Shown: positions 6,624-55,694, numbered from the stretch's first letter. The stretch: 64,000 nt of DNA from a virus (IMGVR_UViG_3300025131_009354:1-64000); one strand, 5' to 3'. The notes: a model not told the origin generated them from the sequence alone. Program-made: numbers and translations.

Positions 6624-6631
6624 CTATTTAT
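6624..6631 (+). promoter_or_regulatory. putative late promoter motif CTATTTAT
   Basis: intergenic, upstream of the gene at 6674. Confidence 0.55.
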
Positions 6632-6673
6632 AGATAGCCTGGGTGGCTTTAAGATTTAAGGAGAACATAAATA

Positions 6674-8150: not shown

Positions 8151-8255
8151 TTTATTGTTTCCCGCCGTCGCGACAGCGGGAAACCAGTTTCACTTTGTGG
8201 GCATCCGCGCAATCCCCAACCTTTCACTAATGTATTTTTGGTAGGAGAAAACCAA

Positions 8256-19383: not shown

Positions 19384-20427
19384 ATGGCTGTTGACTTCAA
19401 AACCTTCGTATCCCTGGCCCCCGCAGTTAGCGCTGCTCGGTTGCCCGTCTTGCTTCGTGGTCGCCACGGCATCGGCAAAAGCCAGGTTGTTTATCAACTC
19501 GCAGGTACCCTCGGGCTTCCTGTTATTGAGCGCCGTGCCAGCCAGATGACTGAGGGCGACCTTGTTGGTCTGCCCAGCATCGAGGGCAACCGTACCACGT
19601 TCAATCCGCCGGATTGGTTCAAGCAAGCTTGCGAAGAGCCCGCCGTCCTCTTCCTCGACGAGGTTGATCGTGCTACTCTTGAGGTTCGTCAGGGCATCTT
19701 TGAGTTGACTGACAGCCGTAAGCTTAACGGGCACACTCTTCACGAAGATACCATCGTCTTCGCTGCCATCAACGGCGGTGATCATGGCGAGAGCTATCAG
19801 GTCAATGAGATGGATCCTGCTGAACTTGATCGTTGGAGCGTCTGGGATGTCGAGCCCACTACTGAAGACTGGCTCGCCTGGGGTAAGAACAATGTTGATA
19901 GTCTTGTTTGGGACTTCATTAACCAGAACCGTGCCCACCTTGAGCATACTACCGATATTGAGCCCAACAAGCGCTATCCCAGCCGTCGTAGCTGGAAGCG
20001 ACTGAATGATGTTTTGGTCAACGCTGACATGATCAAAGAGGCATCACCGGCCATGTTCAACCTGGCTCAAAGCTTCGTTGGGTTTGAAGCTGCGGTAGCC
20101 CTCAACGATTTCGCTAAGAATTACGAGCGGGTCGTAACTGTTGATCAGCTTCTGGCTGGCGAACGTGTCGAAGCTCTGGCGGCCTTCTCGCTCAATGAGC
20201 ACTGCGCCATGATCGAAAAGATCGACGCCGAAGAGGCATGCAAGAAGGAACTCACCGAAGAGCAGATCAGCAACCTGGCTACCTACTTCGTCAGCCTGCC
20301 TAGCGAAGCTGCCATGAAGCTCTGGGGACTCGTCAGCAAAGGCGGAGTACAGGGCAATGTGGTGAACTTCCACGCTGCCAACGACGGCGATGTTGGGGCA
20401 CACTTGAGCAATATTCTGGGAGCATAA
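19384..20427 (+). CDS. MoxR-like AAA+ ATPase
   Basis: Walker A GRHGIGKS; EGDLVGLP; Walker B LFLDEVDR; MDPAELDRW; PSRRSW. Confidence 0.88.
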   Translation: MAVDFKTFVSLAPAVSAARLPVLLRGRHGIGKSQVVYQLAGTLGLPVIERRASQMTEGDLVGLPSIEGNRTTFNPPDWFKQACEEPAVLFLDEVDRATLEVRQGIFELTDSRKLNGHTLHEDTIVFAAINGGDHGESYQVNEMDPAELDRWSVWDVEPTTEDWLAWGKNNVDSLVWDFINQNRAHLEHTTDIEPNKRYPSRRSWKRLNDVLVNADMIKEASPAMFNLAQSFVGFEAAVALNDFAKNYERVVTVDQLLAGERVEALAAFSLNEHCAMIEKIDAEEACKKELTEEQISNLATYFVSLPSEAAMKLWGLVSKGGVQGNVVNFHAANDGDVGAHLSNILGA

Positions 20428-25227: not shown

Positions 25228-26445
25228 ATGACCTTTGACCTCAAGCTACACGCCTACAGGCTTCTGATGGATGACCCGTTCTTTGCTGCGTTGTCCCGCA
25301 AGATTGAGAAGGTAGCTACGACTGCCATCCCTACTGCTGGTGTTCGGGTTGATCCCGAGACTGCTCAGTTTGAAATGGCTTACAACCCTGAGTTCTTTGC
25401 CAGCCTTCCGGAAGATCAGATCAAGGGTGTCCTCAAGCATGAGTTCTATCATCTGATCTTTGAGCATGTTACCAGCCGTAAGCCTGAGGGCGTTAACCCC
25501 AGGGCTTGGAACATTGCTGCGGACTTGGCGATCAACAGCCACTTGGTTGGTGAACTGCCTGACAACTGTTGCATGCCTGGTGTTGCTCCCTTCGAAGATC
25601 TGCCTCTTCATCAAACTGCTGAGTGGTATCTTGCCAACCTTCCCCAGCCGCCAGAAGGCTCCGAAGGTGAGAGCGGTTCGGGAGAAGGTGAAGGCGAAGA
25701 AGGCGGTGACAGCGATGCCAGCGGTGAAGGCTCTGACAGCCCTGGCAACTTTGATGATCACTCTGGCTGGTCAGACGGCCAATCCGGAGAAGCTGCTGAC
25801 GCTGCTAACCAAATGGCTAGAGAACGACTTAAGCAAGGCATGAAAGAAGCTGCCAAAGAAGCTGCTGAGTCTGCCAAGGGCTGGGGCTCGATGTCGCAGG
25901 GAGTAAAACAAGAAATTCTAAAGCGACTGGAAACTAAAGTAGATTGGAAGAAAGTGCTGAGGTACTTCATCAAGACTAGCCAGCGTGCTAGCCGTACTTC
26001 CAGCGTGAAGCGTATTAATAAGCGGTATGCTTATATCCATCCCGGCAAGAAGACTAAGCGCCAGGCAAAGATTGCTATTGCTATCGATCAGTCCGGCTCT
26101 GTCAGCAGTGACATGCTTGAATCTTTCTTCGGAGAACTTAATAAGCTGGCAAAGCTGGCAGAGTTCACAGTCATTCCCTTCGATACTCAGGTGGATGAGA
26201 GCAAGGTATACGTTTGGAAGAAGGGTCAGAACAAGAAGGCTGAGCGCGTACTGTGTGGCGGCACTTGCTTCGACGCTCCCACCAATTACGTGAATGATCA
26301 GAGCTTTGACGGTGTCATTATTCTGACGGACATGGAAGCTCCTAAGCCTAAGCGCTGCAAAGCTCAGCGCATGTGGATGACTGACCGGCAAGGTGCTGCT
26401 CGTCCTTACTTCAAGACTAACGAGCGAGTGATTGCAATCGATTAA
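25228..26445 (+). CDS. vWA-domain protein with N-terminal HExxH metallopeptidase-like domain (DUF2201-like)
   Basis: PTAGV, LKHEFYH, WNIAADLAIN, Gly/Glu/Ser linker, MIDAS DQSGS, GGT, ILTD. Confidence 0.88.
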   Translation: MTFDLKLHAYRLLMDDPFFAALSRKIEKVATTAIPTAGVRVDPETAQFEMAYNPEFFASLPEDQIKGVLKHEFYHLIFEHVTSRKPEGVNPRAWNIAADLAINSHLVGELPDNCCMPGVAPFEDLPLHQTAEWYLANLPQPPEGSEGESGSGEGEGEEGGDSDASGEGSDSPGNFDDHSGWSDGQSGEAADAANQMARERLKQGMKEAAKEAAESAKGWGSMSQGVKQEILKRLETKVDWKKVLRYFIKTSQRASRTSSVKRINKRYAYIHPGKKTKRQAKIAIAIDQSGSVSSDMLESFFGELNKLAKLAEFTVIPFDTQVDESKVYVWKKGQNKKAERVLCGGTCFDAPTNYVNDQSFDGVIILTDMEAPKPKRCKAQRMWMTDRQGAARPYFKTNERVIAID

Positions 26446-31611: not shown

Positions 31612-31619
31612 CTATTTAT
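31612..31619 (+). promoter_or_regulatory. putative late promoter motif CTATTTAT
   Basis: 3 nt before the ATG, implying a leaderless mRNA. Confidence 0.55.
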
Positions 31620-31622
31620 AGC

Positions 31623-32298: not shown

Positions 32299-32306
32299 CT
32301 ATTTAT
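32299..32306 (+). promoter_or_regulatory. putative late promoter motif CTATTTAT
   Basis: directly upstream of yeaH-spoVR-prkA. Confidence 0.5.
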
Positions 32307-32323
32307 TTTAGGTCTATAATATT

Positions 32324-33514
32324 ATGAGCACTTTTAAAGAACATAAAACAATTGCTGATAGAGCCGCGAGTGATCGTGCGCGTCATCGCCAAAAGATTGA
32401 AAAAGCTATAAAAGAGAGTATTAAGGACGTTGTAGCTGAAGAAAGTATCATTGGACAAAACGGAAAAAAGAAGATAAGAATACCTGTTAGGGGCATAAAA
32501 GAGCACCGGTTTGTTTATGGAGCTAATGAAAATAATAAGCAAGTCGGCTCAGCGGAAGGAAAAGAAGTCAAACAAGGACAGAGAATTGGACACCGCCGTC
32601 GCCGTTTAGCGAAGGAAGGACAAGGCGACCGTCCTGGAGATAAGCCCGGCGAGGAAATGTATGAGATAGAAATGTCCCTAGAGGAACTAGCTGGATATCT
32701 TTTTAGTGACCTTAATTTGCCCGAGCTAGAAAAGAAGAACTTCAAATTTACAACTCAAGAAAAGATGAAACGGAAAGGCAAGCGCCCATACGGAATTCGT
32801 CCACGCTTGTCAAAAAAAGAAACCATTAAACAAAAGATTAGAAGAAAGAAGGCCGCAATTAAGGCGGGATCCTATGATCCGGAAAGTGGTGAGCGATTTA
32901 CGTTTCACGAGAGTGACCTACGGTATAAACACATAGCACCAGTAATCAAAGAAAACACTGCTGCTGTTGTATTTTTTGTGATGGATGTGTCCGGGTCTAT
33001 GACTAAATCCAAGAAGTTTCTTGCTCGGAGTTTCTTTTTTCTTCTCTATCAATTTTTAAACCATAAATATTCATCTATTGACGTAGTGTTTATTTCTCAT
33101 ACTGCCGACGCCCACGAAGTCAATGAGGAGCAATTTTTTACACAGGTTCCCAATGGCGGAACACTTGTCTCGACTGGGTTGAAAAAAGCAGAAGAGATTA
33201 TTGAAAAACGATATCACCCAAACAATTGGAATCTCTATACTTTTTACTGCGGGGACGGAGATAATTGGGGGATAGATAATAAAGAGGCGCTTGATGCGTT
33301 TAAGCGGTTAAAAGAGATAAATCAGGCAATGTGTTATACTGAAATCGGCTCTGAGCCGACTTACCGAGAACTTTCATTCTTTGGGGGTTCGGGCGAAAGA
33401 CGGCTTTGGGATTGGGTTAAGCTCGCAGAGGATAAGAGCTTCAAGAGAGTTCGCCTCACCGAGAGTAAAGATATTTGGCCAGCGTTTAAAAGATTATTCG
33501 GAGGTAAAGAATAA
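32324..33514 (+). CDS. yeaH: YeaH/YhbH (DUF444) family vWA-like protein
   Basis: DRARHRQKI, IPVRGIKEHRF, LNLPEL, DLRY, VMDVSGSM, GGTLVS, YHP..WNLY, DGDNW. Confidence 0.92.
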   Translation: MSTFKEHKTIADRAASDRARHRQKIEKAIKESIKDVVAEESIIGQNGKKKIRIPVRGIKEHRFVYGANENNKQVGSAEGKEVKQGQRIGHRRRRLAKEGQGDRPGDKPGEEMYEIEMSLEELAGYLFSDLNLPELEKKNFKFTTQEKMKRKGKRPYGIRPRLSKKETIKQKIRRKKAAIKAGSYDPESGERFTFHESDLRYKHIAPVIKENTAAVVFFVMDVSGSMTKSKKFLARSFFFLLYQFLNHKYSSIDVVFISHTADAHEVNEEQFFTQVPNGGTLVSTGLKKAEEIIEKRYHPNNWNLYTFYCGDGDNWGIDNKEALDAFKRLKEINQAMCYTEIGSEPTYRELSFFGGSGERRLWDWVKLAEDKSFKRVRLTESKDIWPAFKRLFGGKE

Positions 33515-34830
33515 TGTCAGACTGGTCGATGGAAGAGCTTCAGGAATGGGATAAAAAGATTTGTAAGATTGGAGAGTCCCTGGGTTTAGACTGGTATCCA
33601 ATTGAGTATGAGATATGTGATTATAAAGAGATGATCGGACACATGGCTTACACGGGGTTACCGACTCACTATAGGCATTGGTCTTTCGGAAAATCCTTTG
33701 ATCGTATTCAGACAGAATATAATTTGGGGATGTCTGGTTTACCATATGAGATGATAATAAATTCCAATCCCAGTATATCGTACCTTATGACAGAGAACCC
33801 AATGCCGACCCACCTACTTACAATGGCACATTGTGTAGGCCACAGCGATTTCTTCAAGAATAACCGTATGTTCTCTGAGACCGGCGCTGATACAGTAATT
33901 GATCGGTTTAAAACCTCCGGTAAACGTGTCAAGAAATATATGGAAGATCCAAATATTGGAATTGATAAGGTTGAGAAGATATTAGATGCTTGTCACGCTA
34001 TTCGTTTTCAAGTCCCGCGGACTCCCGGACTAAAACGTCGGAATCATAAAGAACTTAAAGAATATTATAAAAGATTAATATTGAATGATAAGTCTGGCTG
34101 GTGGGATCATTTTAATTTAGAAAAAATTCCACTAGAGCCAGACTGTAACCTTTTAGCCTTTATAGCAGATAATAATCGATTTCTAGAGGAGTGGGAAAGA
34201 GATCTAATTCGTATTGTTGAACAAGAGTCTAAATATTTTGTCCCGCAAGCTTGTACCAAAATAATGAATGAGGGGTGGGCTTGCATGATGCATGAAAAAA
34301 TTCTTAATATGCTGGATATACCAGATGATTATTTCCTATCATTTGTCCGATTACATAATCAGGTAGTTAGGCCTCACTTGGGCAGGATTAATCCATATCA
34401 CTTAGGGTTTAAAATATTCAAATATATTGAAGAAACCCAAGGATTTGATGAATGTCTGAGGATCAGAGAAATACACAACGACGAAACTTTCCTTAAAAAC
34501 TATCTTAATGAGGAATTATGCAAAGAGTTGAATTTATTTACTTATTCGTTTAATAGGAGAGAGGGGTACAACCAAATCGCCGATGTTTCTGGGGAAGATA
34601 GCTGGCAAAGAGTCCGCGATAACCTAATTAAAGGTGTGGGATTAAATAGTGTTCCTGTAGTTCTAATAAAAGAATTACGTAAAGATGGAACACTTATTTT
34701 ACAGCATGAGCACGATGGGAGAGATCTTGAATTATCCGAAGCAAATAAAGTGTTTGAGCACATTAACAGTTTGTGGGTTGGTGGTATAAGATTCACAACA
34801 GTAATAGAAGAAGATACTTGGGAGTTCTAG
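33514..34830 (+). CDS. spoVR: SpoVR/YcgB family protein
   Basis: GLP..YRHWSFGK, YEMIINSNP, AHCVGHSDFFKNN, TKIMNEGWA, NPYHLG. Confidence 0.94.
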   Translation: MSDWSMEELQEWDKKICKIGESLGLDWYPIEYEICDYKEMIGHMAYTGLPTHYRHWSFGKSFDRIQTEYNLGMSGLPYEMIINSNPSISYLMTENPMPTHLLTMAHCVGHSDFFKNNRMFSETGADTVIDRFKTSGKRVKKYMEDPNIGIDKVEKILDACHAIRFQVPRTPGLKRRNHKELKEYYKRLILNDKSGWWDHFNLEKIPLEPDCNLLAFIADNNRFLEEWERDLIRIVEQESKYFVPQACTKIMNEGWACMMHEKILNMLDIPDDYFLSFVRLHNQVVRPHLGRINPYHLGFKIFKYIEETQGFDECLRIREIHNDETFLKNYLNEELCKELNLFTYSFNRREGYNQIADVSGEDSWQRVRDNLIKGVGLNSVPVVLIKELRKDGTLILQHEHDGRDLELSEANKVFEHINSLWVGGIRFTTVIEEDTWEF

Positions 34831-34833
34831 TAG

Positions 34834-36777
34834 ATGTCAAAAAATAACAAATCTGATAAGTTTTTGAAACTGGTTGGCAAACACCAGGAGAAGAAAAAAG
34901 TAAAACAATTTCGTGGAAGTTTATCTGAATACATGGAATTGCTTGAAGATGATTCTGGTATAGCCAAGCTTGCACATAAAAGACTGTTTGACTCCATAGT
35001 CTCGAATGGCGTAACTAGAATGGAGAGATCTAATGATCGATGCAACAAATTATTCGGCGGGGAAAAGCTTAGAACATATGATTATTTCCAAGACAAGTTC
35101 TTCGGGATGGAGCGCTCTCTTGCAAAGATAATGAGATTCTTGAGATCAGCATCTTTAAAAGGAGAAGAGAGCCGTCAAGTTCTTTTACTGCTTGGCCCAG
35201 TGGGTGCCGGTAAATCTGCCTTAATGGAGCATATCAAAAGCGCCCTAGAAGAATGTGAGGGAATGTATCATATTGATGGGTGTCCGATCCATGAAGAGCC
35301 CCTTCATCTTATTCCCCGCTCCTTGAGGGAAGAGTTTCGTAAGCTATATGGAATTCGGATTGAAGGTGATTTGTGCCCAGTCTGCCGGTTCAGGCTTAAA
35401 GACGAATTTGATAATGATTATATGGCAATGCCTGTTGCTCAATCTTCTTTTTCTGTCCGCGGGAGGCGTGGTGTCGGCGTGGTGCCGCCAATGGATGCCA
35501 ATAGCCAGGACGTAACAATTCTAGTTGGCAGCGAAGATATTTCAAAGCTGGATATGTATTCTGAAGATGATCCACGAGTTCTCTCACTAAATGGGGCTTT
35601 CAACGTTGGTAACCGAGGTATTGTGGAGTTTGTAGAAGTCTTTAAAAACGAAATTGAGTTCTTACATACAATGATCACAGCGACACAAGAGAAATCAGTG
35701 CCATCGCCAGGCAAAGGTCCCATGATTTATTTTGATGGCGTAATTCTAGCTCATTGTAATGAGGCAGAGTGGAACAAGTTCAAGTCAGAGAATACTAATG
35801 AAGCTATCCTTGATAGAATTGTGAGAGTTAATGTACCTTATTGCCTAGAAGTATCTGAGGAAATAAAGATTTATCAAAAGATGCTTAACCTATCTGATTT
35901 TGATGGACATGTTGCCCCACATACACTGGAGGTTGCTTCTATGTTCGCCGTTCTTAGCCGGTTGCACCCCTCCAACAAGGTTGACCCACTAACGAAAATG
36001 AAGCTCTATAACGGCAAGGATGTGATTGAAAAAGGTACAGTTAAGAAAATTGATATTAACGACCTCAGAGATGAATCCAGAAATGAGGGAATGACTGGTA
36101 TTTCTACACGATTCATCATGAAGGCTATTGATTCGGCTCTATCGGATAGTGAAGAAGATATGGTAACGCCAATATCTATCCGCGATGCGCTAATCAAGCA
36201 GGTCAAAGATCAAATTGTAGTAGAGGACGACCGTAATAGATATCTTGACTTTTTGGGAAAAACATTACACGACGAATATCTTAATATCCTAGAAAAAGAA
36301 ATTACAAAAGCATTTGTATCAGCATATGAAGAACAAGCAGAAGCTCTGTTTAATAACTATTTGGATCATGCGGAAGCCTACGTTAATATGGCGACAGTAA
36401 AGGATTCTATTACAAAGGAAGAAATAAACCCAGATGACGGCTTTATGGCTTCTATCGAGGAGCAAATTGGGATTACCGGGACATCCAAAGAGAACTTCCG
36501 TGTGGATATTACAGCCTTCATGTTCTCTAAGCTTCGACGCGGAGAGAAAGTGGACTGGAAATCTTATGCGCCGCTTAGGGAAGCTATTGAGACTAAGTTA
36601 ACATCCTCAGTCAAGCAAATATCTCGCATTGTGACCAAATCTAAAAGCCGAGATAAAAAGCAACAAGGAAAATATAACGAAATGGTGGACACTCTAATAA
36701 AAGAATATGGATACAACGAGAGTTCAGCACAAGAAGTAATTAAATTCGCAGCTAATAATCTGTGGAGAGACAGCTAA
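34834..36777 (+). CDS. prkA: PrkA/YeaG family AAA+ protein
   Basis: LLGPVGAGKS, GCPIHEEPL, GDLCPVC, DDPRV, GNRGIVEFVEVFK, EAILDRI, VPYCL, APHTL, EGMTGISTRF. Confidence 0.95.
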   Translation: MSKNNKSDKFLKLVGKHQEKKKVKQFRGSLSEYMELLEDDSGIAKLAHKRLFDSIVSNGVTRMERSNDRCNKLFGGEKLRTYDYFQDKFFGMERSLAKIMRFLRSASLKGEESRQVLLLLGPVGAGKSALMEHIKSALEECEGMYHIDGCPIHEEPLHLIPRSLREEFRKLYGIRIEGDLCPVCRFRLKDEFDNDYMAMPVAQSSFSVRGRRGVGVVPPMDANSQDVTILVGSEDISKLDMYSEDDPRVLSLNGAFNVGNRGIVEFVEVFKNEIEFLHTMITATQEKSVPSPGKGPMIYFDGVILAHCNEAEWNKFKSENTNEAILDRIVRVNVPYCLEVSEEIKIYQKMLNLSDFDGHVAPHTLEVASMFAVLSRLHPSNKVDPLTKMKLYNGKDVIEKGTVKKIDINDLRDESRNEGMTGISTRFIMKAIDSALSDSEEDMVTPISIRDALIKQVKDQIVVEDDRNRYLDFLGKTLHDEYLNILEKEITKAFVSAYEEQAEALFNNYLDHAEAYVNMATVKDSITKEEINPDDGFMASIEEQIGITGTSKENFRVDITAFMFSKLRRGEKVDWKSYAPLREAIETKLTSSVKQISRIVTKSKSRDKKQQGKYNEMVDTLIKEYGYNESSAQEVIKFAANNLWRDS

Positions 36778-36791
36778 AGGATTGCCTAAAG

Positions 36792-37778
36792 ATGGGTAAC
36801 ACCCTAGAAAGACTAGAAAAACTACAGAACTTTATTGGAAACACTCCAACAATTCGGTTTCAGTGCGAAATTAATGGTAAGAACGTTACTGTTTTAGCAA
36901 AATATGAAGCTAATAATTTTACCGGCAGCATTAAAGACCGGATGGCCTACCAAATAATTAAAGCTGCACATGTGTTTGATAAAATCTCCCCCGGAGATAT
37001 CATTGTTGAGGCAACAAGTGGGAATACTGGTATTTCTTTTGCTGCAATTGGGGCATATCTCGGACATCCAGTCCAAATTTATATGCCAAACTGGCTTTCT
37101 GAAGAAAGAAAACGTTTATTACGATTTTATGGTGCAGATTTATTTGAAATAAGCGCAAAAGATGGCGGATTTATGGAATGTATTGACCTTGCTGCTAAAA
37201 AAAGTAAGAAAAACGGGTATTTTTGCCCAAAACAGTTTGATAATACTTGGAATATAATGGCTCACCAGAAAACAACGGCTCCGGAGCTTGAAAATACATT
37301 AAAATCCAATAAATTAGGTAATTTAGATGTATTTATAGCAGGTGTAGGGACGGGTGGGACTATAATGGGGTTTTATCACTATTTTTCTGAACTCTTGCAC
37401 AATAAGAACGATTTCAAGGCATTTCCAATACTGCCGGACAAAAATGAAGACGAAGGACATCGCATCGAAGGCATTGGTGATAGTTTTGTTCCGCGTATCC
37501 TAAATTTAAAGTCCCTGGGACCTGTTCTGAGGGTAAAAGACTCAGATGCAATAAATATAGCGAGACAGATAAACAAGCTAGGGCTCTCCGTAGGAATTTC
37601 CTCCGGCGCGAATCTTTTCGGGGCTATAATCAAAGCATCAGAGCTTCCAGCATCTGGAAATGTCGCGACAGTGCTACCTGACGGAAATAAGAAATATCTA
37701 ACGACAGATTTATGCTCTCAGAGCAAAGAACCTCTCTCGGAAGAGATAAAAATCTTAGATTATGAATTAATTTCTTGA
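36792..37778 (+). CDS. cysK: cysteine synthase family (PLP-dependent)
   Basis: IGNTP, TGSIKDR, EATSGNTG, GVGTGGT, IEGIG, GISSGAN; CysK vs CysM not resolved. Confidence 0.88.
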   Translation: MGNTLERLEKLQNFIGNTPTIRFQCEINGKNVTVLAKYEANNFTGSIKDRMAYQIIKAAHVFDKISPGDIIVEATSGNTGISFAAIGAYLGHPVQIYMPNWLSEERKRLLRFYGADLFEISAKDGGFMECIDLAAKKSKKNGYFCPKQFDNTWNIMAHQKTTAPELENTLKSNKLGNLDVFIAGVGTGGTIMGFYHYFSELLHNKNDFKAFPILPDKNEDEGHRIEGIGDSFVPRILNLKSLGPVLRVKDSDAINIARQINKLGLSVGISSGANLFGAIIKASELPASGNVATVLPDGNKKYLTTDLCSQSKEPLSEEIKILDYELIS

Positions 37779-41830: not shown

Positions 41831-41902
41831 AGGGACGTAGCTCAGTGGTAGAGCACCGGACTTTTAATCCGATGGTCGTGGGTTCAATCCCCACCGTCCC
41901 TA
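41831..41902 (+). tRNA. tRNA-Lys(TTT), CCA not encoded
   Basis: acceptor AGGGACG/CGTCCCT; anticodon loop CTTTTAA; T-loop TTCAATC. Confidence 0.92.
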
Positions 41903-41910
41903 CAACAATT

Positions 41911-41987
<77 letters not shown>

Positions 41988-41997
41988 AGGAGTTTCA

Positions 41998-42597
41998 ATG
42001 TTGCGAATTTTGGGAAAGTTGCCGAGAGAGTTAGGAGTCGCCGTCAGCGGCGGACCAGACTCCATGGCTATTTTAGATTTTCTCAGCAACAATCACGATG
42101 TGACCGCAGTTTATTTCGACCACGGCACCGACTTCGGGAAGAAATGTAAAAGATTTGTAAAGAACTTTTGCGATAATAGAAATATTCCCTTTGTGATAGG
42201 AGTTAATTATAATGATTGTCCTCCGCACAAATCACTCGAAGAGCACTGGCGTGACGAGCGTTACAAGTTCCTACATAGCTTTGATATGCCCATCATCACG
42301 GGTCATAACTTAGACGACGTGATAGAGTGGTTTTTGTTCTCTTCGATTCATGGCGCAGGCAAGGTAATGCCCTACAACAACAAAAACGTCATTCGACCAT
42401 TTATCTCTACCTCTAAACGCTCGCTGGAAGCTTGGTGTTATAGAAAAGAAGTTCCATATTTGGTTGACCCCGGAAACGCAGACAGAAAGTTCATGCGCAG
42501 CATTATCCGGCATGACATTATGCCTCACGCACGGCTCGTAAATCCGGGGATCGAAAAGACATTTAAAAAACTCGTGGAAAAGGAATATAATAACTAA
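41998..42597 (+). CDS. tilS: minimal tRNA(Ile)-lysidine synthetase
   Basis: PP-loop VAVSGGPDS, DHG, RDERY, TGHNLDD, IRP, DPGN...R..IRH; no C-terminal domains. Confidence 0.88.
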   Translation: MLRILGKLPRELGVAVSGGPDSMAILDFLSNNHDVTAVYFDHGTDFGKKCKRFVKNFCDNRNIPFVIGVNYNDCPPHKSLEEHWRDERYKFLHSFDMPIITGHNLDDVIEWFLFSSIHGAGKVMPYNNKNVIRPFISTSKRSLEAWCYRKEVPYLVDPGNADRKFMRSIIRHDIMPHARLVNPGIEKTFKKLVEKEYNN

Positions 42598-42607
42598 GAA
42601 AGGATAT

Positions 42608-42684
42608 AGGGGATTAGCTCAATTGGTCAGAGCACTCGACTCATAATCGATAGGTTCAGGGTTCAAGTCCCTGATCCCCTACCA
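42608..42684 (+). tRNA. tRNA with CAT anticodon, probably tRNA-Ile2
   Basis: CGA-CTCATAA-TCG arm resembles Ile2; ends ACCA; 10 nt downstream of tilS. Confidence 0.85.
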
Positions 42685-42687
42685 AAA

Positions 42688-42762
42688 GCCGCTTTAGCTC
42701 AGGGGTAGAGCAGCAGTTTTGTAAACTGCCGGTCATCTGTTCGAATCAGATAAGCGGCTCCA
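42688..42762 (+). tRNA. tRNA-Thr(TGT)
   Basis: GCAGT-TTTGTAA-ACTGC; acceptor GCCGCTT/AAGCGGC; CCA. Confidence 0.93.
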
Positions 42763-42763
42763 T

Positions 42764-42839
42764 GCGGGCATAACTCAGTTGGTAGAGTGTCAGTTTTCCA
42801 AACTGAATGTCGTCGGTTCGAACCCGACTGTCCGCTCCA
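42764..42839 (+). tRNA. tRNA-Gly(TCC)
   Basis: TCAGT-TTTCCAA-ACTGA; acceptor GCGGGCA/TGTCCGC; TCCA. Confidence 0.94.
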
Positions 42840-42840
42840 G

Positions 42841-42928
42841 GGAAGAGTGTCCGAGTGGTCGATGGTGAGGCACTAGAAATGCCTTGTACAGCGATGTACC
42901 GTGGGTTCGAACCCCACCTCTTCCTCCA
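42841..42928 (+). tRNA. tRNA-Ser(AGA), long variable arm, A34
   Basis: AGGCA-CTAGAAA-TGCCT; variable arm GTACA-GCGA-TGTAC; acceptor GGAAGAG/CTCTTCC; TCCA. Confidence 0.88.
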
Positions 42929-44657: not shown

Positions 44658-44672
44658 ATATCTATTTATAAT

Positions 44673-47647: not shown

Positions 47648-48547
47648 ATGAAGAAAAAAACACCTTTTTACGTCAAGTTTCTTACAATATGGTTACTTTG
47701 CCTGACAAGTTGTATGACCGGTTGTGCCACGATTAACTTTAGTCAAGAGAAAGAAGTAGGGTTGTTGCCGATGCACGCGTTTGTACAAATTCAACAATCT
47801 GTGGAGCTTGAAGGTTGTGGGCAAGATCCTGAAACTAAGGAAAGCAAATGCCAAAAAGCAATAATGCGTTATGTCTCTTCCGGTGCGTATGTTTTTCACA
47901 GTGAGGTATCTGAAGGTTTTTCTTACGCCTTAACGGCCGGTCACTCCTGCCAATCCAGTATTCCAAAGGTTCAAAACATCAACGGATATAAGGTGACGAA
48001 TAATGGCTCAGTCTTTACGGCTGTAGGTTTAAATGGTTCACGACATGACGCAGAAGTAGTAAGTATTAATTCTCGCTTCGATCTTTGTTTGTTAAGAGTT
48101 TCAGATGTACTAGGGAACCCTCCTACTCTCAAAATAGCAAAAAAGGTACCTAGGCGAGGAGAGCTTGTTACAAATATGGCTGCACCTCATGGATTATTCT
48201 GGCCTGGGACAGTGCTACTGTTTAAAGGAATTTTCTCAGGGTATCACAGTAGGGGGTATTCTATTTATACAATCCCCACAAAACCCGGATCTAGCGGGTC
48301 TCCAATTTTAAATGATAAAAATGAACTTATAGGAGTTATTTTTGCTGGCTATTCTATCATCGAGAATGTTGGGCTATCTTCACCGCTTATAGCTATCAGA
48401 GTATTTCTTAAAAAGTCAATAGTTAAAGGGGAAATGGAACTTTTCGAAAAAAGTAGAAAGTCTTCTGGTACAGATAGACAAACTACAATAGAAAGAAGCT
48501 GGATGCAAAAGATGAAAACAAAACTTAGTGAAGTTTTCGGTCAGTAA
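47648..48547 (+). CDS. trypsin-like (S1) serine protease, exported/lipoprotein
   Basis: LTAGHSC, FDLCLL, PGSSGSPI; signal peptide with Cys. Confidence 0.85.
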   Translation: MKKKTPFYVKFLTIWLLCLTSCMTGCATINFSQEKEVGLLPMHAFVQIQQSVELEGCGQDPETKESKCQKAIMRYVSSGAYVFHSEVSEGFSYALTAGHSCQSSIPKVQNINGYKVTNNGSVFTAVGLNGSRHDAEVVSINSRFDLCLLRVSDVLGNPPTLKIAKKVPRRGELVTNMAAPHGLFWPGTVLLFKGIFSGYHSRGYSIYTIPTKPGSSGSPILNDKNELIGVIFAGYSIIENVGLSSPLIAIRVFLKKSIVKGEMELFEKSRKSSGTDRQTTIERSWMQKMKTKLSEVFGQ

Positions 48548-49045: not shown

Positions 49046-49395
49046 GAGACCCTATCCCGCGGAGAATGCTGGGGCCGATCACAAAAGAGATGGGCGGGGA
49101 TCAAGTACCATCCGGTTCTAGTGGTGGCGGCGGTGGCGGCGTAACAATCACAAACAATATCAACGGCTATATATTAAGGGCTACTGGTGATGCGAATAGG
49201 GTAGAGGGTATTCCACAACTTCAATATGATTCTAGCCGCGCTACCTTGACTGCCAGCGCTGGTATATACATTTCCGGTTCAAATGACCCAGGAGATAACT
49301 ATTTATATCTACATGGAACTGATAGTACCGGCGCAAAAAAGCAGTTTAAGATTGAGATAAGCGGGTCTATGTTTAAAGTCATATCTCAAGCCTAG
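49042..49395 (+). CDS. probable virion structural protein
   Basis: Gly run; C-terminus GTD.TG...F.I.ISG resembles that of the 43220 gene. Confidence 0.55.
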   Translation: MRDPIPRRMLGPITKEMGGDQVPSGSSGGGGGGVTITNNINGYILRATGDANRVEGIPQLQYDSSRATLTASAGIYISGSNDPGDNYLYLHGTDSTGAKKQFKIEISGSMFKVISQA

Positions 49396-49644: not shown

Positions 49645-52600
49645 ATGGGCGGTGTTTATGGTAAGACCGGGCATATGTCTCATTTATATGACAATCCCGA
49701 TTTAACATTCCAGGAAATGAAAGAAATTCTACAAGCCGCGGCCAACGCAGACTTAGATGTAGAAGAAAAGCTAGATGGGCAAAATCTATATTTATCTTAC
49801 TCAATACCAGAGGGGAAAGCCAAAGCTTCTAGGAACCTTACGCATCTTCGTAACAAGGGTGTTGATGCAATGGGATTAGCTAATAAGTTTGCTGGGCGTG
49901 GTACACTGTATGATGCCTTTACAAATTCTTTTGATGCTTTCGAAAAAGCAGTAGAAACAATGAGCCCAGAAGCTAGAGAGAAGGTTTTTGGACCAGATAC
50001 GAACTTTTGGTATAATGCAGAAGTGATGGATCCGGATAATCCAAATATTATCAACTATGATTCTAAAACACTCAAAATACACGATAAAGGTCATTATCGA
50101 TTTGACAGGAAAGCAAAGGACGGAAAAGGGGACAAGATTTTTGAGGATTTCACAGAGAGGTTAGAAATCTTAGATTCGCATCTTGATAGAATACAAAAAG
50201 CCCTAGAGAATCATGACTTTTCACTTATAAGAGACGCGGCTCTTCAATTAAAAAAGATGTCTGATGATGTTCCCTTGCGTACAGCCATTACTAAAATTAA
50301 CTCTATTATCGGTAGAGAGGGACTAAATGATAACGATACTGTAGGTGATTATTTATACAAACGAGTTCACAGTGGGTTAGATACCGATCTCAATGATTTA
50401 AAAAAGGAAGAAATAACAAACTACTTGTTGAAGCTCCCAAGTAATGTGGGACTTAGGGCAATCAAAAAAGGACTATCTCCAGAAGATACGCAAGACCTAA
50501 ATGCTATTATAGCATCAAAATCCAATATACTTCAACAAGCGATTCAGCCAGTTGAAAATGTGATTCATGATTTTACTGTAGAGTTGCTAAAAGGAATGGA
50601 AAGCCGGTTTATTCTTGATAACGATAAGGAAACCGAAAGACTTCAAAATAACTTAGCAAACGCAGTAAACGCCCTTACGGCAACAGGTTCAGAAGATCCT
50701 GCCGCCATAGAGATAATGCAAAGGCACCTAAACAAGATTAAGGACTTTGTGAATATCTCTACCCCTATTGAGGGAGTTGTTTTTGATTATAACGGGCACA
50801 CTTACAAATTCACCGGTAATTTCGCCCCTCTTAACCAGATTTTAGGAATGGTTGACCCTACAAAATATAGCCGCGGCCCACAAAACCCCGAAACAAATAA
50901 TGAGTCCTTAATCTTTTCTAAAAATATTATAAAAGAAGAGGAAGAGAAAATATCTTCTGAACCTAGTAAAGCAGAACGCTTTGTGCTTTCATTGCCAAAA
51001 TTTACTCCTACAGAAGCTTGGGGTGATCCCAATTCTATGGAAAGAGAACAGATTCAAAGAATATTTGATACCGTTGGTGGTGGTGCAACTATTCAAGAAA
51101 AATTACAGTTCTTAAATGATTCTATTAACAATCCCCGAGGAGGAATCAGATCTCCTCGTAGAATTATCAGTACTCTGATTCTTCTGGAATCTATTAGGGC
51201 TGTTATTGAATCATTTGGTGAATCGCCTGCCGGTTTTGTTTTTGAAGGTTTTATGGCCGGATTACTTCGCGGTAAGCAAGTTGCCGGCAGAACTGAAAAG
51301 GGTAATCTCCCTATTCAAGATTTAATTGCTTTCTCTGAACTTGGTGGTGGTAAAAGTGTACCAGTAAGTCTCAAATTGTTAAAGGGATTAGCTCCCGGAA
51401 AAAAAGGTAAGATAACAGATATTGAAGGAAGTTATACTAATCTCATAGATGCACTAGAAGAATTTGGACTCATGGTTTACATCGTTGGTAGAAAAGATGG
51501 TGAACAAATTGTCCTTGAGAAATTTACTTTTACTAGAGATAATTTTATGGAAGCTCTTATAAGAGGGGCTACAGGCGGATTAGTTAAAGAAGCTTATTTG
51601 TTTCAACTCCCCGGAAAAACAGTTGAACAATCTATTCGTAAACTTAAACGAACAAAAGATTGGGATACAAAATATGAACTCTTGCAAACAACTTATGGTT
51701 ACGACCCTAAAGAACGGGCTCGAAAACTAAGCAACAAAGAAAAAGAAGAAGAAATAGCCATAACGGATGAGGTACCTGACGGAGAAGATATAGAAGTAGA
51801 AGTGGACTCAGAAGAGGTAAAGACTCCTGGAAATAGAAAAGATACTTCATATTCTGTAAAAGAATGTCGAAGACTTTGGAATGAAAGGCTGAACGAATCA
51901 TTATTGGTCGAATCTTCCCAGCGACAATGGTCTATTAGTCCCGCCCAATTAAGAAGCATTGCTCCTATGGTTGATTATGAAAAATTAGGATCTTTACCTT
52001 ATAATTCCAATAAGATTGTACAAGTCGCTGAACAATATATGAAATACTTGTCTGATAATCTTTTGAATGTCTTTGAGGCTACTAAAGATTTGTCTGAAAA
52101 TATCACGCAGTATTTTACTTTCCGAAAAAGAAGCAAAGCTATTTCATCAGGGGAAAAAGCGATTGAAGATTCTAACACGATTAGTGATGAAATGGCTCAA
52201 CAATTAAGTCAAGACAAAGGTGTAAAAGAATCATTAAATAATGAGAGATCATATACACAAGGCATTAAGAACTCGGGAGACACCAATGGAAAAAAGATTG
52301 CCCTTTTCCCAGGGAAATTTAAACCACCCCATAGAGGACATTATGAGTTCGCTAAAAAAATGGCTAAAAAACTTGGAAATGAAGGAGAGGTGGTTGTTTT
52401 AATTTCTCCATCTTCTAAGCCTGAAGTAAACCCTCAACAGTCGTTAGAAATTTGGAATCAATATCTGCAATCCGGTGATGCTCCGGATAATATCCAAGTG
52501 GAAATTGCGGATTATCGCAGCCCAATCACCTCAGTTTATGAGTTTGTAGCTGATCCTGTCAAAGCGAGAGCCGGTGATACTATTTATTTAATCAAGAGTT

Positions 52601-53007
52601 CAAAAGATGTCGGAGATACAAGGTATAACGGGGCTCAGTCTTATGCTGAAAGAAAAAATCCTGGTGTCAATGTAGAAATAATAGAGGAAGATCCTGTGAC
52701 TCGTCCTGATGGAACCCCTTACAATGGTGAAGATGCTAGAGAAGCTATAGCCATGAATGACGCTGTCCTTTTCAATACTTTTGTACCAAAAGTTATCGAT
52801 TCAGATGAAATATGGAATATTTTTCATCCAAACGAATCATATAACGAGCACGTAGACTTTATGATAGACGAGATCTCGGCGATGGGATCCGGAGCCGTTT
52901 CTGGCGGTGGTTCTGGCTTCGGGCCACCCAATACCTATAACCCCTATACTCCCGGTAGAGTAAAAAAACCTAAAGTTAAGCGGGCAAAACGACAAAGGCG
53001 GAAGTAA
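49645..53007 (+). CDS. 1120-aa multidomain protein: KxDG ligase-like, PD-(D/E)xK-like and HxGH nucleotidyltransferase domains
   Basis: GHMSHLYD...EKLDG...EGVVF; FEGF...IQD...VSLK; FPGKFKPPHRGH. Confidence 0.7.
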   Translation: MGGVYGKTGHMSHLYDNPDLTFQEMKEILQAAANADLDVEEKLDGQNLYLSYSIPEGKAKASRNLTHLRNKGVDAMGLANKFAGRGTLYDAFTNSFDAFEKAVETMSPEAREKVFGPDTNFWYNAEVMDPDNPNIINYDSKTLKIHDKGHYRFDRKAKDGKGDKIFEDFTERLEILDSHLDRIQKALENHDFSLIRDAALQLKKMSDDVPLRTAITKINSIIGREGLNDNDTVGDYLYKRVHSGLDTDLNDLKKEEITNYLLKLPSNVGLRAIKKGLSPEDTQDLNAIIASKSNILQQAIQPVENVIHDFTVELLKGMESRFILDNDKETERLQNNLANAVNALTATGSEDPAAIEIMQRHLNKIKDFVNISTPIEGVVFDYNGHTYKFTGNFAPLNQILGMVDPTKYSRGPQNPETNNESLIFSKNIIKEEEEKISSEPSKAERFVLSLPKFTPTEAWGDPNSMEREQIQRIFDTVGGGATIQEKLQFLNDSINNPRGGIRSPRRIISTLILLESIRAVIESFGESPAGFVFEGFMAGLLRGKQVAGRTEKGNLPIQDLIAFSELGGGKSVPVSLKLLKGLAPGKKGKITDIEGSYTNLIDALEEFGLMVYIVGRKDGEQIVLEKFTFTRDNFMEALIRGATGGLVKEAYLFQLPGKTVEQSIRKLKRTKDWDTKYELLQTTYGYDPKERARKLSNKEKEEEIAITDEVPDGEDIEVEVDSEEVKTPGNRKDTSYSVKECRRLWNERLNESLLVESSQRQWSISPAQLRSIAPMVDYEKLGSLPYNSNKIVQVAEQYMKYLSDNLLNVFEATKDLSENITQYFTFRKRSKAISSGEKAIEDSNTISDEMAQQLSQDKGVKESLNNERSYTQGIKNSGDTNGKKIALFPGKFKPPHRGHYEFAKKMAKKLGNEGEVVVLISPSSKPEVNPQQSLEIWNQYLQSGDAPDNIQVEIADYRSPITSVYEFVADPVKARAGDTIYLIKSSKDVGDTRYNGAQSYAERKNPGVNVEIIEEDPVTRPDGTPYNGEDAREAIAMNDAVLFNTFVPKVIDSDEIWNIFHPNESYNEHVDFMIDEISAMGSGAVSGGGSGFGPPNTYNPYTPGRVKKPKVKRAKRQRRK

Positions 53008-53994: not shown

Positions 53995-54318
53995 GGGGGT
54001 AACCGGTATCGATTGACGGGGAAGTAGAAAAGGTGCAAGGGTGAGGGAAGCGTGGCTCACTAAAAACGCTTAAACTTTTAATCGCAAACGACGATTTTAA
54101 CATGGAGATGGCAGCTTAAAAACCTGACCTCTCTTGAGGCGACGGCAGCCGATAAACAGAAAGCCGTATTTGAGAACCTTAAGGCTTTTGATTATCTCAG
54201 CCACAATAAGATGATCTAGTCAAGCGGGCTGTCCGACGAAAAAAACAGGCCTAACCTTGTGAATGACCTTTCTGTGAAACTGGACAAGACGGGAGTTCGA
54301 TTCTCCCTACCTCCACCA
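53995..54318 (+). ncRNA. ssrA: tmRNA; tag ANDDFNMEMAA at 54084-54119
   Basis: acceptor GGGGGTA/TACCTCC with G3:U70; T-arm GGGAG-TTCGATT-CTCCC; ACCA end; tag ORF ending AA-stop. Confidence 0.95.
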
Positions 54319-54343
54319 GCCGCCCTCGGGCGGCTTTTTTTTT
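54319..54343 (+). terminator. rho-independent terminator
   Basis: GCCGCCC-TC-GGGCGGC plus T9. Confidence 0.85.
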
Positions 54344-54386
54344 GTGGGGAATCTATTTATTATATGCCTTTAAGATTGGTGGTAAA

Positions 54387-55694
54387 TTGACAAAAACTCT
54401 TATACTTGATACTAATGTTTATTTAACAGACGCACAGTCTCTTTTTTCTTTTGGCAGAAGTAACGTTGCAGTTCCAACTATTGTACTAGATGAGATTGAC
54501 CGGCACAAACACCGACAAGATACAGCAGGCTTAAATGCCAGGACAATGAATCGAGTGTTAGATAAGCTTCGCTCAAAAGGAAGTTTATTACATGGCGTTC
54601 CACTTGGCAGCGGAAAAGGTAAAGTCTTTGCCGCACAATATGATCCAAGATATATGCCCGCCGGCATGGATCAAGAAGACTCCGATAACAAAATAATTGC
54701 TGTTGCTCTTCGACTGAGAATAGAGGGCCACGATATCGCCGTGATCTCTCGTGATCTTAATATGCGAGTTAAATGTGACTCGTTCGGGATAGAGTGCTAT
54801 GATTATCAGCCTCAACAAGCAGTAAAATCTGTAGAAAACCTATATGACGGCTCTTCGGAGATTGTTGTACCTGATGAGTTGGTGGAGAATTTCTACAACG
54901 ATATAGAAGTCTTTCTGCCAGACCAGAAATCAAAATTGTTCCCAAATCACTATTTGGTGCTTAAATCAGAGAAAGATCCAAAGAAGACAGCGCTTTGTCG
55001 ATTCAAAAACTACGAAACACCTCTGCAAAAGATTTATACTTATCGAGACATCTGGGGACTTTCGGCGAAAAACAAAGAACAGAAATACGCCATGGATCTC
55101 CTTTTTGATAAAGACATTCAGATAATATCCTTGACAGGACAGGCAGGAACTGGTAAAACACTTATAGCAGCAGCTTGCGGACTAGAACAGGTCTTACATA
55201 ATACAAAAGCTAACGGCGGGTACGATAAATTGATAATCACAAGGCCAGTACAGCCCATGGGTCGAGATATTGGGTTTTTGCCCGGCACTCTAGAGGAGAA
55301 GATGTTGCCCTGGATAGCTCCTATACGTGATAACTTAGAATATCTTTTTGGGGACAAGACGGCACTTCAGATGCACATGGAACAAGGAATTGTAGAGATT
55401 GAGGCCATGACATATATTCGAGGCAGGTCGATCTCAAACGCCTTTATGATAGTTGACGAGGCACAAAACTTAACAACTCACGAATTAAAGACTATAATAA
55501 CTAGAGTGGGGCATGGTACTAAATTAGTCCTGACAGGCGATATTCAACAGATTGATAATTCATATGTTGATGCTGTCTCGAATGGGTTGACTCACGCTGT
55601 AGAGAAATTTAAGGAATATAGCATTTCTGGGCATGTGACGCTATATAAGGGAGAGAGATCAAAATTGGCAACTTTAGCGGCTGAAATCCTGTGA
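54387..55694 (+). CDS. phoH: PIN-PhoH fusion (PhoH2/YlaK-like)
   Basis: ILDTNV, VLDEID, DNKII, SRD.NMR; GQAGTGKT, IGFLPG, YIRGRS, VDEAQN; TTG start; CTATTTAT at 54353. Confidence 0.92.
   Translation: MTKTLILDTNVYLTDAQSLFSFGRSNVAVPTIVLDEIDRHKHRQDTAGLNARTMNRVLDKLRSKGSLLHGVPLGSGKGKVFAAQYDPRYMPAGMDQEDSDNKIIAVALRLRIEGHDIAVISRDLNMRVKCDSFGIECYDYQPQQAVKSVENLYDGSSEIVVPDELVENFYNDIEVFLPDQKSKLFPNHYLVLKSEKDPKKTALCRFKNYETPLQKIYTYRDIWGLSAKNKEQKYAMDLLFDKDIQIISLTGQAGTGKTLIAAACGLEQVLHNTKANGGYDKLIITRPVQPMGRDIGFLPGTLEEKMLPWIAPIRDNLEYLFGDKTALQMHMEQGIVEIEAMTYIRGRSISNAFMIVDEAQNLTTHELKTIITRVGHGTKLVLTGDIQQIDNSYVDAVSNGLTHAVEKFKEYSISGHVTLYKGERSKLATLAAEIL

Follow-up and report, generated by a model that had tools for sequence, protein, structure and literature searches.

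A conserved yeaH-spoVR-prkA operon in a putative marine T4-like phage lineage and its possible role in the turnover of host protein

The viral DNA stretch IMGVR_UViG_3300025131_009354:1-64000 (hereafter the window, meaning all 64,000 nucleotides that were analysed) carries complete homologues of the three genes of the bacterial PrkA-YeaH-SpoVR module, which stand in an order unusual for cells and are kept as a unit throughout a clade of related phages. The first, a yeaH/yhbH homologue (DUF444; 32324-33514, plus strand), encodes 396 residues with an N-terminal basic region followed by a von Willebrand factor A (vWA) domain with an intact metal ion-dependent adhesion site (MIDAS). It overlaps by one nucleotide with a spoVR/ycgB homologue (33514-34830, plus strand; 438 residues), whose product consists of a predicted zincin-like helical domain (residues 1-342) and a SpoVR_C beta domain. 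After a gap of three nucleotides follows a prkA/yeaG (spdA) homologue (34834-36777, plus strand; 647 residues) with an AAA+ domain and a helical C-terminal domain. All three genes are co-oriented, full length and translationally coupled. The G+C content of the region (0.39-0.41) is close to that of the neighbouring genes (0.41-0.43). A copy of a promoter-like element, CTATTTAT, precedes the operon at 32299-32306 (plus strand), 18 nt from the yeaH ATG.

The family assignments are unambiguous. YeaH matches PF04285 (DUF444/YeaH) with 346 bits and belongs to phrog_19072; SpoVR matches PF04293 with 402 bits and, in addition, PF24755 (SpoVR_C); PrkA matches PF08298 (AAA_PrkA) with 469 bits and PF06798 (PrkA C-domain) with 270 bits, far above the 25-bit cut-offs of both models. 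The NCBIfam scores are lower relative to their thresholds: the best model for YeaH, TIGR02877 (YhbH, the short Bacillota type), gives 368 bits against an equivalog cut-off of 468, and PRK15455 and PRK11767 give 394 and 273 bits against cut-offs of 576 and 679. As all three phage proteins fall below the equivalog cut-offs, they represent a divergent subfamily and not equivalogs of the characterised proteins. The closest structural entry to PrkA is PDB 9xip, a 'Serine protein kinase' (E = 8e-103). This entry and its companions 9xiq and 9xir contain a PrkA-family protein of 692 residues in a total of 30 chains, and a literature search found no publication describing 9xip.

The residues expected to carry the functions of these families are all present. 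When 83-84 phage and 10-11 cellular sequences per gene were compared, the MIDAS elements of YeaH (DVSGS, GGT and GDGDN) were invariant, and the H106-x3-H110 motif, the NEGW motif and one more histidine of SpoVR were likewise invariant or almost so. In a 34-sequence alignment of SpoVR, residues H106, H110, N252, E253, G254 and H260 do not vary at all. PrkA's Walker A motif (GPVGAGKS, residues 121-128) is conserved in 84 phage sequences, with G121, P122 and K127 invariant in a family-wide alignment of 24 sequences, and an NRGxxExxE segment is invariant, or almost so, in the phage clade and its nearest cellular relatives. Hence, the preliminary description of this locus, which was made from the DNA alone and reported full-length, tightly packed genes with intact motifs, an AT-richness like that of the surroundings and the upstream CTATTTAT, was accurate in these respects.

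IMG/VR was scanned with PrkA. A PrkA of this type was confirmed in at least 171 stretches, on contigs of up to 257 kb, and the best 80 of these were compared locus by locus. The trio is full length, tightly spaced and in the order yeaH-spoVR-prkA in 79 of the 80 loci; the single exception is cut by a contig end. Identity to the proteins of the window ranges over 62-89% for PrkA, 49-89% for YeaH and 46-84% for SpoVR, and the pairwise identities of the three genes are correlated over 83 loci (Spearman 0.73-0.86, Pearson 0.86-0.91), which fits their inheritance as one unit. Against the five closest loci tested, the proportion of synonymous differences (pS) is 0.72-0.91, i.e. saturated, while that of nonsynonymous differences (pN) is only 0.07-0.15, showing strong purifying selection. 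These proportions are given instead of a dN/dS ratio because the synonymous sites are saturated even against the closest loci available. The AAA+/vWA/metalloprotein combination noted earlier is thus a genuine phage-borne trio.

These comparisons bear directly on the trivial explanation, namely that a host fragment was mis-assembled into a viral contig or was captured very recently and is not under selection. Such an artefact would agree with the lack of structural genes in the window and with the occurrence of the same locus in some bins of metagenome-assembled genomes (MAGs). It is extremely improbable and in effect refuted, since the same arrangement recurs in 79 of 80 contigs that come from many samples and were assembled independently, the G+C content is like that of the neighbours, and conserved proteins coexist with saturated synonymous sites. 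Furthermore, no bona fide cellular locus encodes a PrkA more than 59% identical to that of the window. Neither a chimeric host fragment nor near-identity to a cellular locus, two of the findings that the preliminary description had named as fatal to its proposal, was therefore encountered. Two MAG loci in Luteolibacter and Halobacteriovorax bins (L087 and L089) were considered as donors and rejected; they are mis-binned phage, as their synteny with IMG/VR phage contigs extends over nearly the entire locus contigs.

An IMG/VR contig of 75.6 kb, with a CheckV completeness of 37%, begins with the 64 kb of the window. The window has no structural genes, and genes for a Gp23-type capsid protein and a large terminase were not found on this incomplete contig. 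The window contains many small open reading frames (ORFs) on the same strand, six tRNA genes, a transfer-messenger RNA (tmRNA) gene and phage-typical accessory genes (PhoH, FtsH, GroEL, MoxR). Four long relatives with PrkA proteins 63-87% identical to that of the window carry genes for a T4 Gp23-type capsid protein and a large terminase (TerL), and two of them, of 190.5 and 193.8 kb, are rated 100% complete. The closest complete relative, G004, also encodes portal, tail sheath and baseplate hub proteins. It is collinear with the window, the trio being followed in both by cysK, a small ORF and a phosphomannomutase-like gene, and a homologue of a 1120-residue protein of the window lies about 13-14 kb 3' of the trio in both. 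The protein database contains thousands of close relatives, many of them from Tara and other marine samples. A megablast search of the locus against GenBank phages gave no match. Taken together, the IMG/VR relatives, the collinearity with G004 and the marine protein relatives assign the locus, as judged by sequence comparison, to an abundant uncultured lineage of probably T4-like marine phages with genomes of about 190-260 kb, the phage of the window itself being put at about 190-200 kb.

The nearest cellular relatives were sought with PrkA in 1.84 billion representative proteins (exhaustively) and in 185,579 species genomes. Identity among the representative proteins does not exceed 42%, apart from two at 55% and 51%, and the close matches among the species genomes are all on MAG contigs. 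Eleven such contigs (seven from Bacillota, three from Bacteroidota and one from Acidiferrobacterales) encode a PrkA of 56-59% identity in the gene order prkA-yeaH-spoVR, and in the two whose flanks were scanned (L095 and L099) the trio sits amid ordinary chromosomal genes. This subtype, which we call type 2, is sporadic in Bacillota (8 of 121 genomes sampled, with classic PrkA of 36-41% identity in about 30 more and both types in one genome) and in Bacteroidota (1 of 121). In Bdellovibrionota, 113 of 124 genomes give a match, of which about 100 are full length at 53-59%. The cellular type-2 module agrees with the phage trio in its three families and in the lengths, domain architecture and invariant residues of the proteins, with full-length identities of 53-59% for PrkA, 39-45% for YeaH and 38-45% for SpoVR. 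It differs in its chromosomal neighbours, e.g. nucleoside phosphorylase, adenosine deaminase and a Crp regulator.

Of 29 Bdellovibrionota loci, 27 have the order prkA-yeaH-spoVR, as do all 20 type-2 loci with readable flanks from Bacillota, Bacteroidota and Acidiferrobacterales, so that the order yeaH-spoVR-prkA of the phages is unusual indeed, as had been remarked before. In three classic Bacillota loci (L113-L115, from G016, G067 and G109), spoVR lies directly 5' of a classic prkA, and no yeaH was detected within the 1.5-kb downstream flank. Gene-order variants therefore exist in cells too, and the order is typical of the module but not strictly defining; in E. coli, ycgB is unlinked.

Trees were calculated with FastTree (175 rows) and with a quick IQ-TREE search under LG+G4 (60 rows). 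The phage clade is monophyletic in both, with maximal support (Shimodaira-Hasegawa (SH)-like 100 in FastTree, SH approximate likelihood ratio test 100 in IQ-TREE); it groups with the type-2 sequences of Bacillota and Bacteroidota at 97-98 support, and the Bdellovibrionota clade is next out. The simplest history that accounts for these sequences would be one ancient capture of a type-2 operon by a phage, after which prkA moved to the end. The direction of the transfer follows from the derived gene order of the phages; the tree itself does not show it. A locus in a Bdellovibrionota MAG (L088/L131, G007:C9:56085-61007) has the phage gene order and a PrkA 64% identical to that of the window. Its flanks look cellular, with genes for an Fpg glycosylase, a PAS histidine kinase and a GDSL lipase. 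We rejected it as a representative of the donor lineage, as its place in the tree is within the phage clade and a separate, normal type-2 copy is found on another contig (C5) of this MAG; this suggests either a phage-to-bacterium transfer or a binning error. PrkA matches of 1,000-1,570 residues, which were considered as possible fusions to SpoVR or YeaH, turned out to be intein-containing proteins. Many PrkA homologues of 38-42% identity have their AAA+ domain interrupted by one or two LAGLIDADG inteins and reach about 850-1,570 residues (e.g. P0125, P0128, P0134, P0148, P0167, P0169 and P0174).

Earlier records already contain phages with the trio. The Thermus phages phiYS40, TMA and Lalka8 and the Ralstonia jumbo phage RsoM2USA encode a full-length PrkA together with an adjacent vWA/DUF444 protein and SpoVR. 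The Thermus phages share the vWA-SpoVR-...-PrkA order with the window, phiYS40 having an extra gene between spoVR and prkA that is absent from Lalka8, and their trio is located beside the portal and TerL genes; RsoM2USA has the bacterial order. The PrkA proteins of these phages are 31-33% identical to that of the window and are independent acquisitions. They belong to other parts of the tree, those of the Thermus phages grouping with other representative proteins and that of RsoM2USA with a Magnetococcales homologue, and phages have thus captured the module at least three times. The genes were annotated as a vWA protein, SpoVR and a 'serine kinase' in phiYS40 (deposited in 2006) and also in the related Thermus phages, PrkA and SpoVR appear in the table of annotated ORFs of the RsoM2USA paper, and all three proteins have PHROG families. 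Moreover, spoVR was the most abundant 'sporulation auxiliary metabolic gene' (AMG) in the virome of a marine oxygen-minimum zone (PMC8940887). The preliminary description could not say whether the trio had been described in phages; these records show that it had, as annotation only, and the literature search brought up no publication in which the phage trio is considered as a unit or put to a test.

The trio of the window lies behind the CTATTTAT element, whereas its cellular counterparts are behind stress-sigma promoters. Scans for sigma-70 promoters and terminators between 31.5 and 39.2 kb gave matches at chance level, with none conspicuous inside the operon. In the window there are 12 copies of CTATTTAT where 3.4 are expected, and 11 of the 12 are on the gene-bearing plus strand. 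Of the degenerate form CTAyTTAy, of which CTATTTAT is one version, the 75.6-kb contig has 15 forward instances and a single reverse one; eight of the forward instances fall in the roughly 10% of the sequence that is not covered by ORFs, 4-43 nt before ORF starts. Within the close subclade, and in some of the distant loci as well, the element is kept about 15-25 nt 5' of yeaH, although the flanking sequence has diverged. The complete relative G004 has 24 forward and 5 reverse copies, with 8 of the forward sites inside its 17-kb structural block. Five of these occupy intergenic gaps directly before ORFs. Two of the five ORFs are small, and the others are the tail sheath gene, a gene resembling that of a head-tail adaptor and the gene that stands in front of the major head gene. 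CTAyTTAy is a real, strand-biased element of the clade, and to read it as a late-class element is reasonable, if unproven. An ATG follows some copies of CTATTTAT at a distance of just 4 nt, and a simple -10 element for that gene would hardly be expected so close to it.

We also considered the T4 late promoter motif TATAAATA and rejected it in the sense orientation, because 10 of its 11 copies in the window are on the minus, non-coding strand. The motif is over-represented (3.5 copies are expected), and its copies, e.g. at 6625-6632, 31613-31620, 44663-44670, 48262-48269 and 49300-49307, are mostly the reverse complement of CTATTTATA.

Late expression of the trio is plausible because CTAyTTAy also precedes structural genes in G004. 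The earlier proposal that the module acts 'late in infection' has thus gained a strand-biased motif common to the trio and to head and tail-sheath genes, and the timing itself stands as plausible. A literature search found no usable transcription-timing data for phiYS40. The shared element might also be taken to mean that the trio acts on phage proteins in virion morphogenesis, by removing a scaffold or controlling the quality of head and tail assembly, and the position of the trio of the Thermus phages, between the portal/minor head genes and TerL, would fit such a role. We regard it as very unlikely. In G004 the trio (95.8-100.3 kb) is about 75 kb away from the structural block (10-29 kb), and the invariant residues are also preserved outside viruses, in the nearest cellular homologues (53-59% identity).

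To obtain clues about the activity of the trio, SpoVR was modelled with AlphaFold2 from the 34-sequence alignment, giving a predicted local distance difference test score (pLDDT) of 85 and a predicted template modelling score (pTM) of 0.84. Foldseek found no match to the model in the PDB at E <= 0.001. An exhaustive VIA-align comparison, on the other hand, gave a list whose top 50 entries are nearly all of the zincin fold (Z = 6-11.3, 160-199 aligned residues, root mean square deviation 3.4-4.5 Å), including M1 aminopeptidases/LTA4H, M32, M3, M4/thermolysin, ACE, M61, M30, M48 and YbeY. The alignments cover residues 1-342 of the model. The H106-x3-H110 motif is on a long helix (residues 97-116) and NEGW is on a later helix, an arrangement reminiscent of gluzincins. 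The model is therefore suggestive of a zincin-like fold. The C-terminal domain of PrkA (residues 385-647), also modelled with AlphaFold2, is all-alpha with a pLDDT of 76 and a pTM of 0.55. It has no Foldseek match at E <= 0.001, and hence none to a kinase or a protease, although this absence does not rule out the kinase family. The model lends no support to the kinase label of PrkA and settles nothing.

Experimental work on the cellular homologues gives further clues. B. subtilis PrkA binds and hydrolyses ATP via its Walker A lysine K108, degrades casein in an ATP-dependent manner that likewise needs K108, and showed no kinase activity, and its ATPase is needed for its role in sporulation (PMC9512850). 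In E. coli, starving cells break down stable cytoplasmic proteins largely without specificity and thereby gain amino acids and ATP for making new proteins; YeaG is required for this degradation, and the authors proposed renaming it SpdA (PMC13684143; PNAS, October 2026). Both proteins resemble the phage PrkA in having the AAA_PrkA and C-terminal domains and the Walker A lysine (K127 in the phage protein) and in co-occurring with YeaH/YhbH and YcgB/SpoVR. Unlike the phage protein, they are under RpoS, NtrC or sigma-E control and have no phage context. The phage PrkA is 36-41% identical to the classic Bacillota proteins and 31-33% identical to those of the proteobacterial type.

On the basis of the proteolysis data for these homologues and of the zincin-like fold of SpoVR, we favour the explanation that the trio is an ATP-driven protein-turnover machine that recycles host protein for virion production, probably together with the late genes. 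We put its probability at roughly 0.45. The ancestor of the marine T4-like lineage would have captured a cellular PrkA-YeaH-SpoVR module once, and the module, rearranged to yeaH-spoVR-prkA, would then have been passed on vertically as a single translationally coupled operon. We infer that the three proteins form a complex with proteolytic activity. PrkA would be its AAA+ ATPase motor, YeaH the vWA/MIDAS partner or adaptor of PrkA, as in MoxR-vWA pairs, and SpoVR a zincin-like metalloprotein that supplies or controls the hydrolytic activity. Together they would carry out an ATP-dependent, largely non-specific turnover of host cytoplasmic proteins. Expressed from CTAyTTAy alongside the virion genes, the machine could convert host protein into amino acids, and some energy, when the demand for capsid and tail proteins is at its peak. 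The benefit to the phage would presumably be greatest in slow-growing, nutrient-limited hosts of the open ocean.

Two known systems, of which the window encodes examples elsewhere, offer functional analogies, for which no homology is claimed. FtsH combines an AAA+ domain with an M41 zincin peptidase in one chain, whereas here the corresponding functions would be distributed over three separate proteins in a proposed complex, and SpoVR differs from FtsH in lacking the HExxH glutamate. In MoxR-vWA pairs, an AAA+ ATPase works with a vWA/MIDAS partner, much as is envisaged for PrkA and YeaH.

Several observations weigh against the recycling of host protein. SpoVR has H106-C-V-G-H110 in place of HExxH, i.e. 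a cysteine at position 107 where the canonical zincin has its catalytic glutamate, and it may therefore not be a peptidase. Its Z-scores, which reach 11.3, are in a range where helical proteins can match by arrangement alone. The proteolysis by B. subtilis PrkA in vitro is slow (24 h), and E. coli YeaG has been reported elsewhere to be a kinase, according to the account in PMC9512850. In addition, the E. coli work dealt with yeaG alone and not with yeaH or ycgB (PMC13684143).

The same machine could instead be selective, degrading or remodelling a few host or phage proteins (regulators, defence proteins or ribosome-associated factors) as a takeover or anti-defence device. Phages often encode targeted degradation functions, and AAA+ proteins commonly have substrate adaptors as their vWA/MIDAS partners. 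B. subtilis PrkA, moreover, influences sporulation by way of regulation and is in turn under the control of phosphorylation by PrkC (PMC9512850). The sole quantitative data obtained in vivo speak for broad, non-specific YeaG-dependent turnover (PMC13684143). None of the four proteins encoded here (YeaH, SpoVR, PrkA and the CysK-like enzyme described below) matches a PADLOC defence model, and no candidate target is evident in the locus. We consider a selective device rather unlikely.

The preliminary description had proposed that the module manipulates host dormancy or development, and a related possibility is that PrkA is a Ser/Thr kinase in a signalling module that sets or blocks a dormant, stationary-phase or developmental state of the host. 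The cellular genes are indeed linked genetically to nitrogen starvation, stationary phase and sporulation, autophosphorylation of YeaG and phosphorylation of AceA are among the reports cited in PMC9512850, and viral spoVR has been read as a sporulation AMG (PMC8940887). Such signalling is nonetheless distinctly unlikely. B. subtilis PrkA has no kinase activity and the P-loop in its C-terminal domain is degenerate (PMC9512850), and the all-alpha model of the corresponding phage domain has no kinase-fold match, even if the family is not thereby excluded. Among the nearest cellular relatives are Bdellovibrionota and Bacteroidota that do not sporulate, which makes a sporulation role unlikely, and a lytic T4-like phage would gain little from a dormant host. 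Nothing in our data points to dormancy or development; the homologue data (PMC9512850, PMC13684143) and the fold of SpoVR favour protein turnover.

A bolder form of the recycling explanation, which could be called 'viral autophagy', would have a single ATP-driven machine in which SpoVR, despite lacking the HExxH glutamate, supplies the hydrolytic activity to its partner PrkA/SpdA, with YeaH as the MIDAS adaptor; the machine would be switched on with the late genes to liquidate the host proteome. In this full form we find it doubtful. If it were true, the compact and abundant phage version would provide a direct handle on the mechanism of starvation-induced protein degradation in cells, where the trio ranks with the most widely conserved of those stress modules that still await a biochemical explanation.

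Relative to the earlier annotations, what is new here is the recognition of a clade-wide, strongly selected operon of single origin and rearranged order, the finding of its nearest cellular subtype and of where that subtype occurs, the removal of cysK from the module, the upstream motif's connection with structural genes, and independent support for a zincin-like SpoVR without the catalytic glutamate. The reading of viral spoVR as a sporulation AMG is corrected, because its nearest relatives belong mostly to non-sporulating phyla and because spoVR travels with prkA and yeaH. The YeaG/SpdA result makes a concrete viral function plausible. Two ideas become testable: that large phages of nutrient-poor waters may fund virion synthesis by recycling host protein, and that the three proteins may act as one machine with SpoVR as its zincin-like component.

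Immediately behind the trio lies a gene for a CysK/CysM-like enzyme dependent on pyridoxal phosphate (PLP) (36792-37778, plus strand), the best start of which is the ATG at 36792, 14 nt past the prkA stop; this spacing had been given correctly before. The protein matches PALP (PF00291) with 189 bits and contains SIKDR, TSGNTG, GVGTGGT and SSGA, which include the PLP-lysine, Asn-loop and Gly-loop signatures. Its score of 251 bits for TIGR01136 (cysKM) is below the cut-off of 344, so the family match does not fix its substrate specificity. Of the 80 loci, 10 have a cysK gene; all of these belong to the 16 closest, and the 64 more distant loci lack it, and the genes 5' of the trio are likewise unconserved among the 80 loci. 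Hence, the module is the trio, and cysK, which had originally been counted as part of it, is a variable accessory neighbour that is possibly co-transcribed.

Elsewhere in the window there are several further genes connected with protein handling: an FtsH-like AAA+/M41 protease (1443-3287), GroEL (8238-9842), a MoxR-type AAA_5 ATPase (19384-20427), a DUF2201 protein that combines a putative metallopeptidase domain at its N-terminus with a vWA-like domain (25228-26445), and a one-piece tmRNA with the tag ANDDFNMEMAA (53995-54318). The MoxR and DUF2201 proteins make up a second AAA+/vWA/metallopeptidase-like system. Together with FtsH, GroEL and the tmRNA, this pair indicates that the phage invests heavily in protein handling, in agreement with the turnover of host protein favoured above. 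The ftsH gene is a patchy accessory, as among the four long relatives searched a homologue was found in G002 only (47% identity). A PIN-PhoH protein is encoded at 54342-55694. The six tRNA genes (Lys-UUU, Arg-UCU, Met-CAU, Thr-UGU, Gly-UCC and Ser-AGA) are clustered at 41831-42928, about 4 kb 3' of the module. Finally, the 1120-residue protein shared with G004 (49645-53007) has three domains, while its counterpart there is a 674-residue ORF (G004:C1:114041-116056) that matches the N-terminal (58%) and C-terminal (44%) domains only; the middle domain was thus either inserted in the lineage of the window or deleted in G004.

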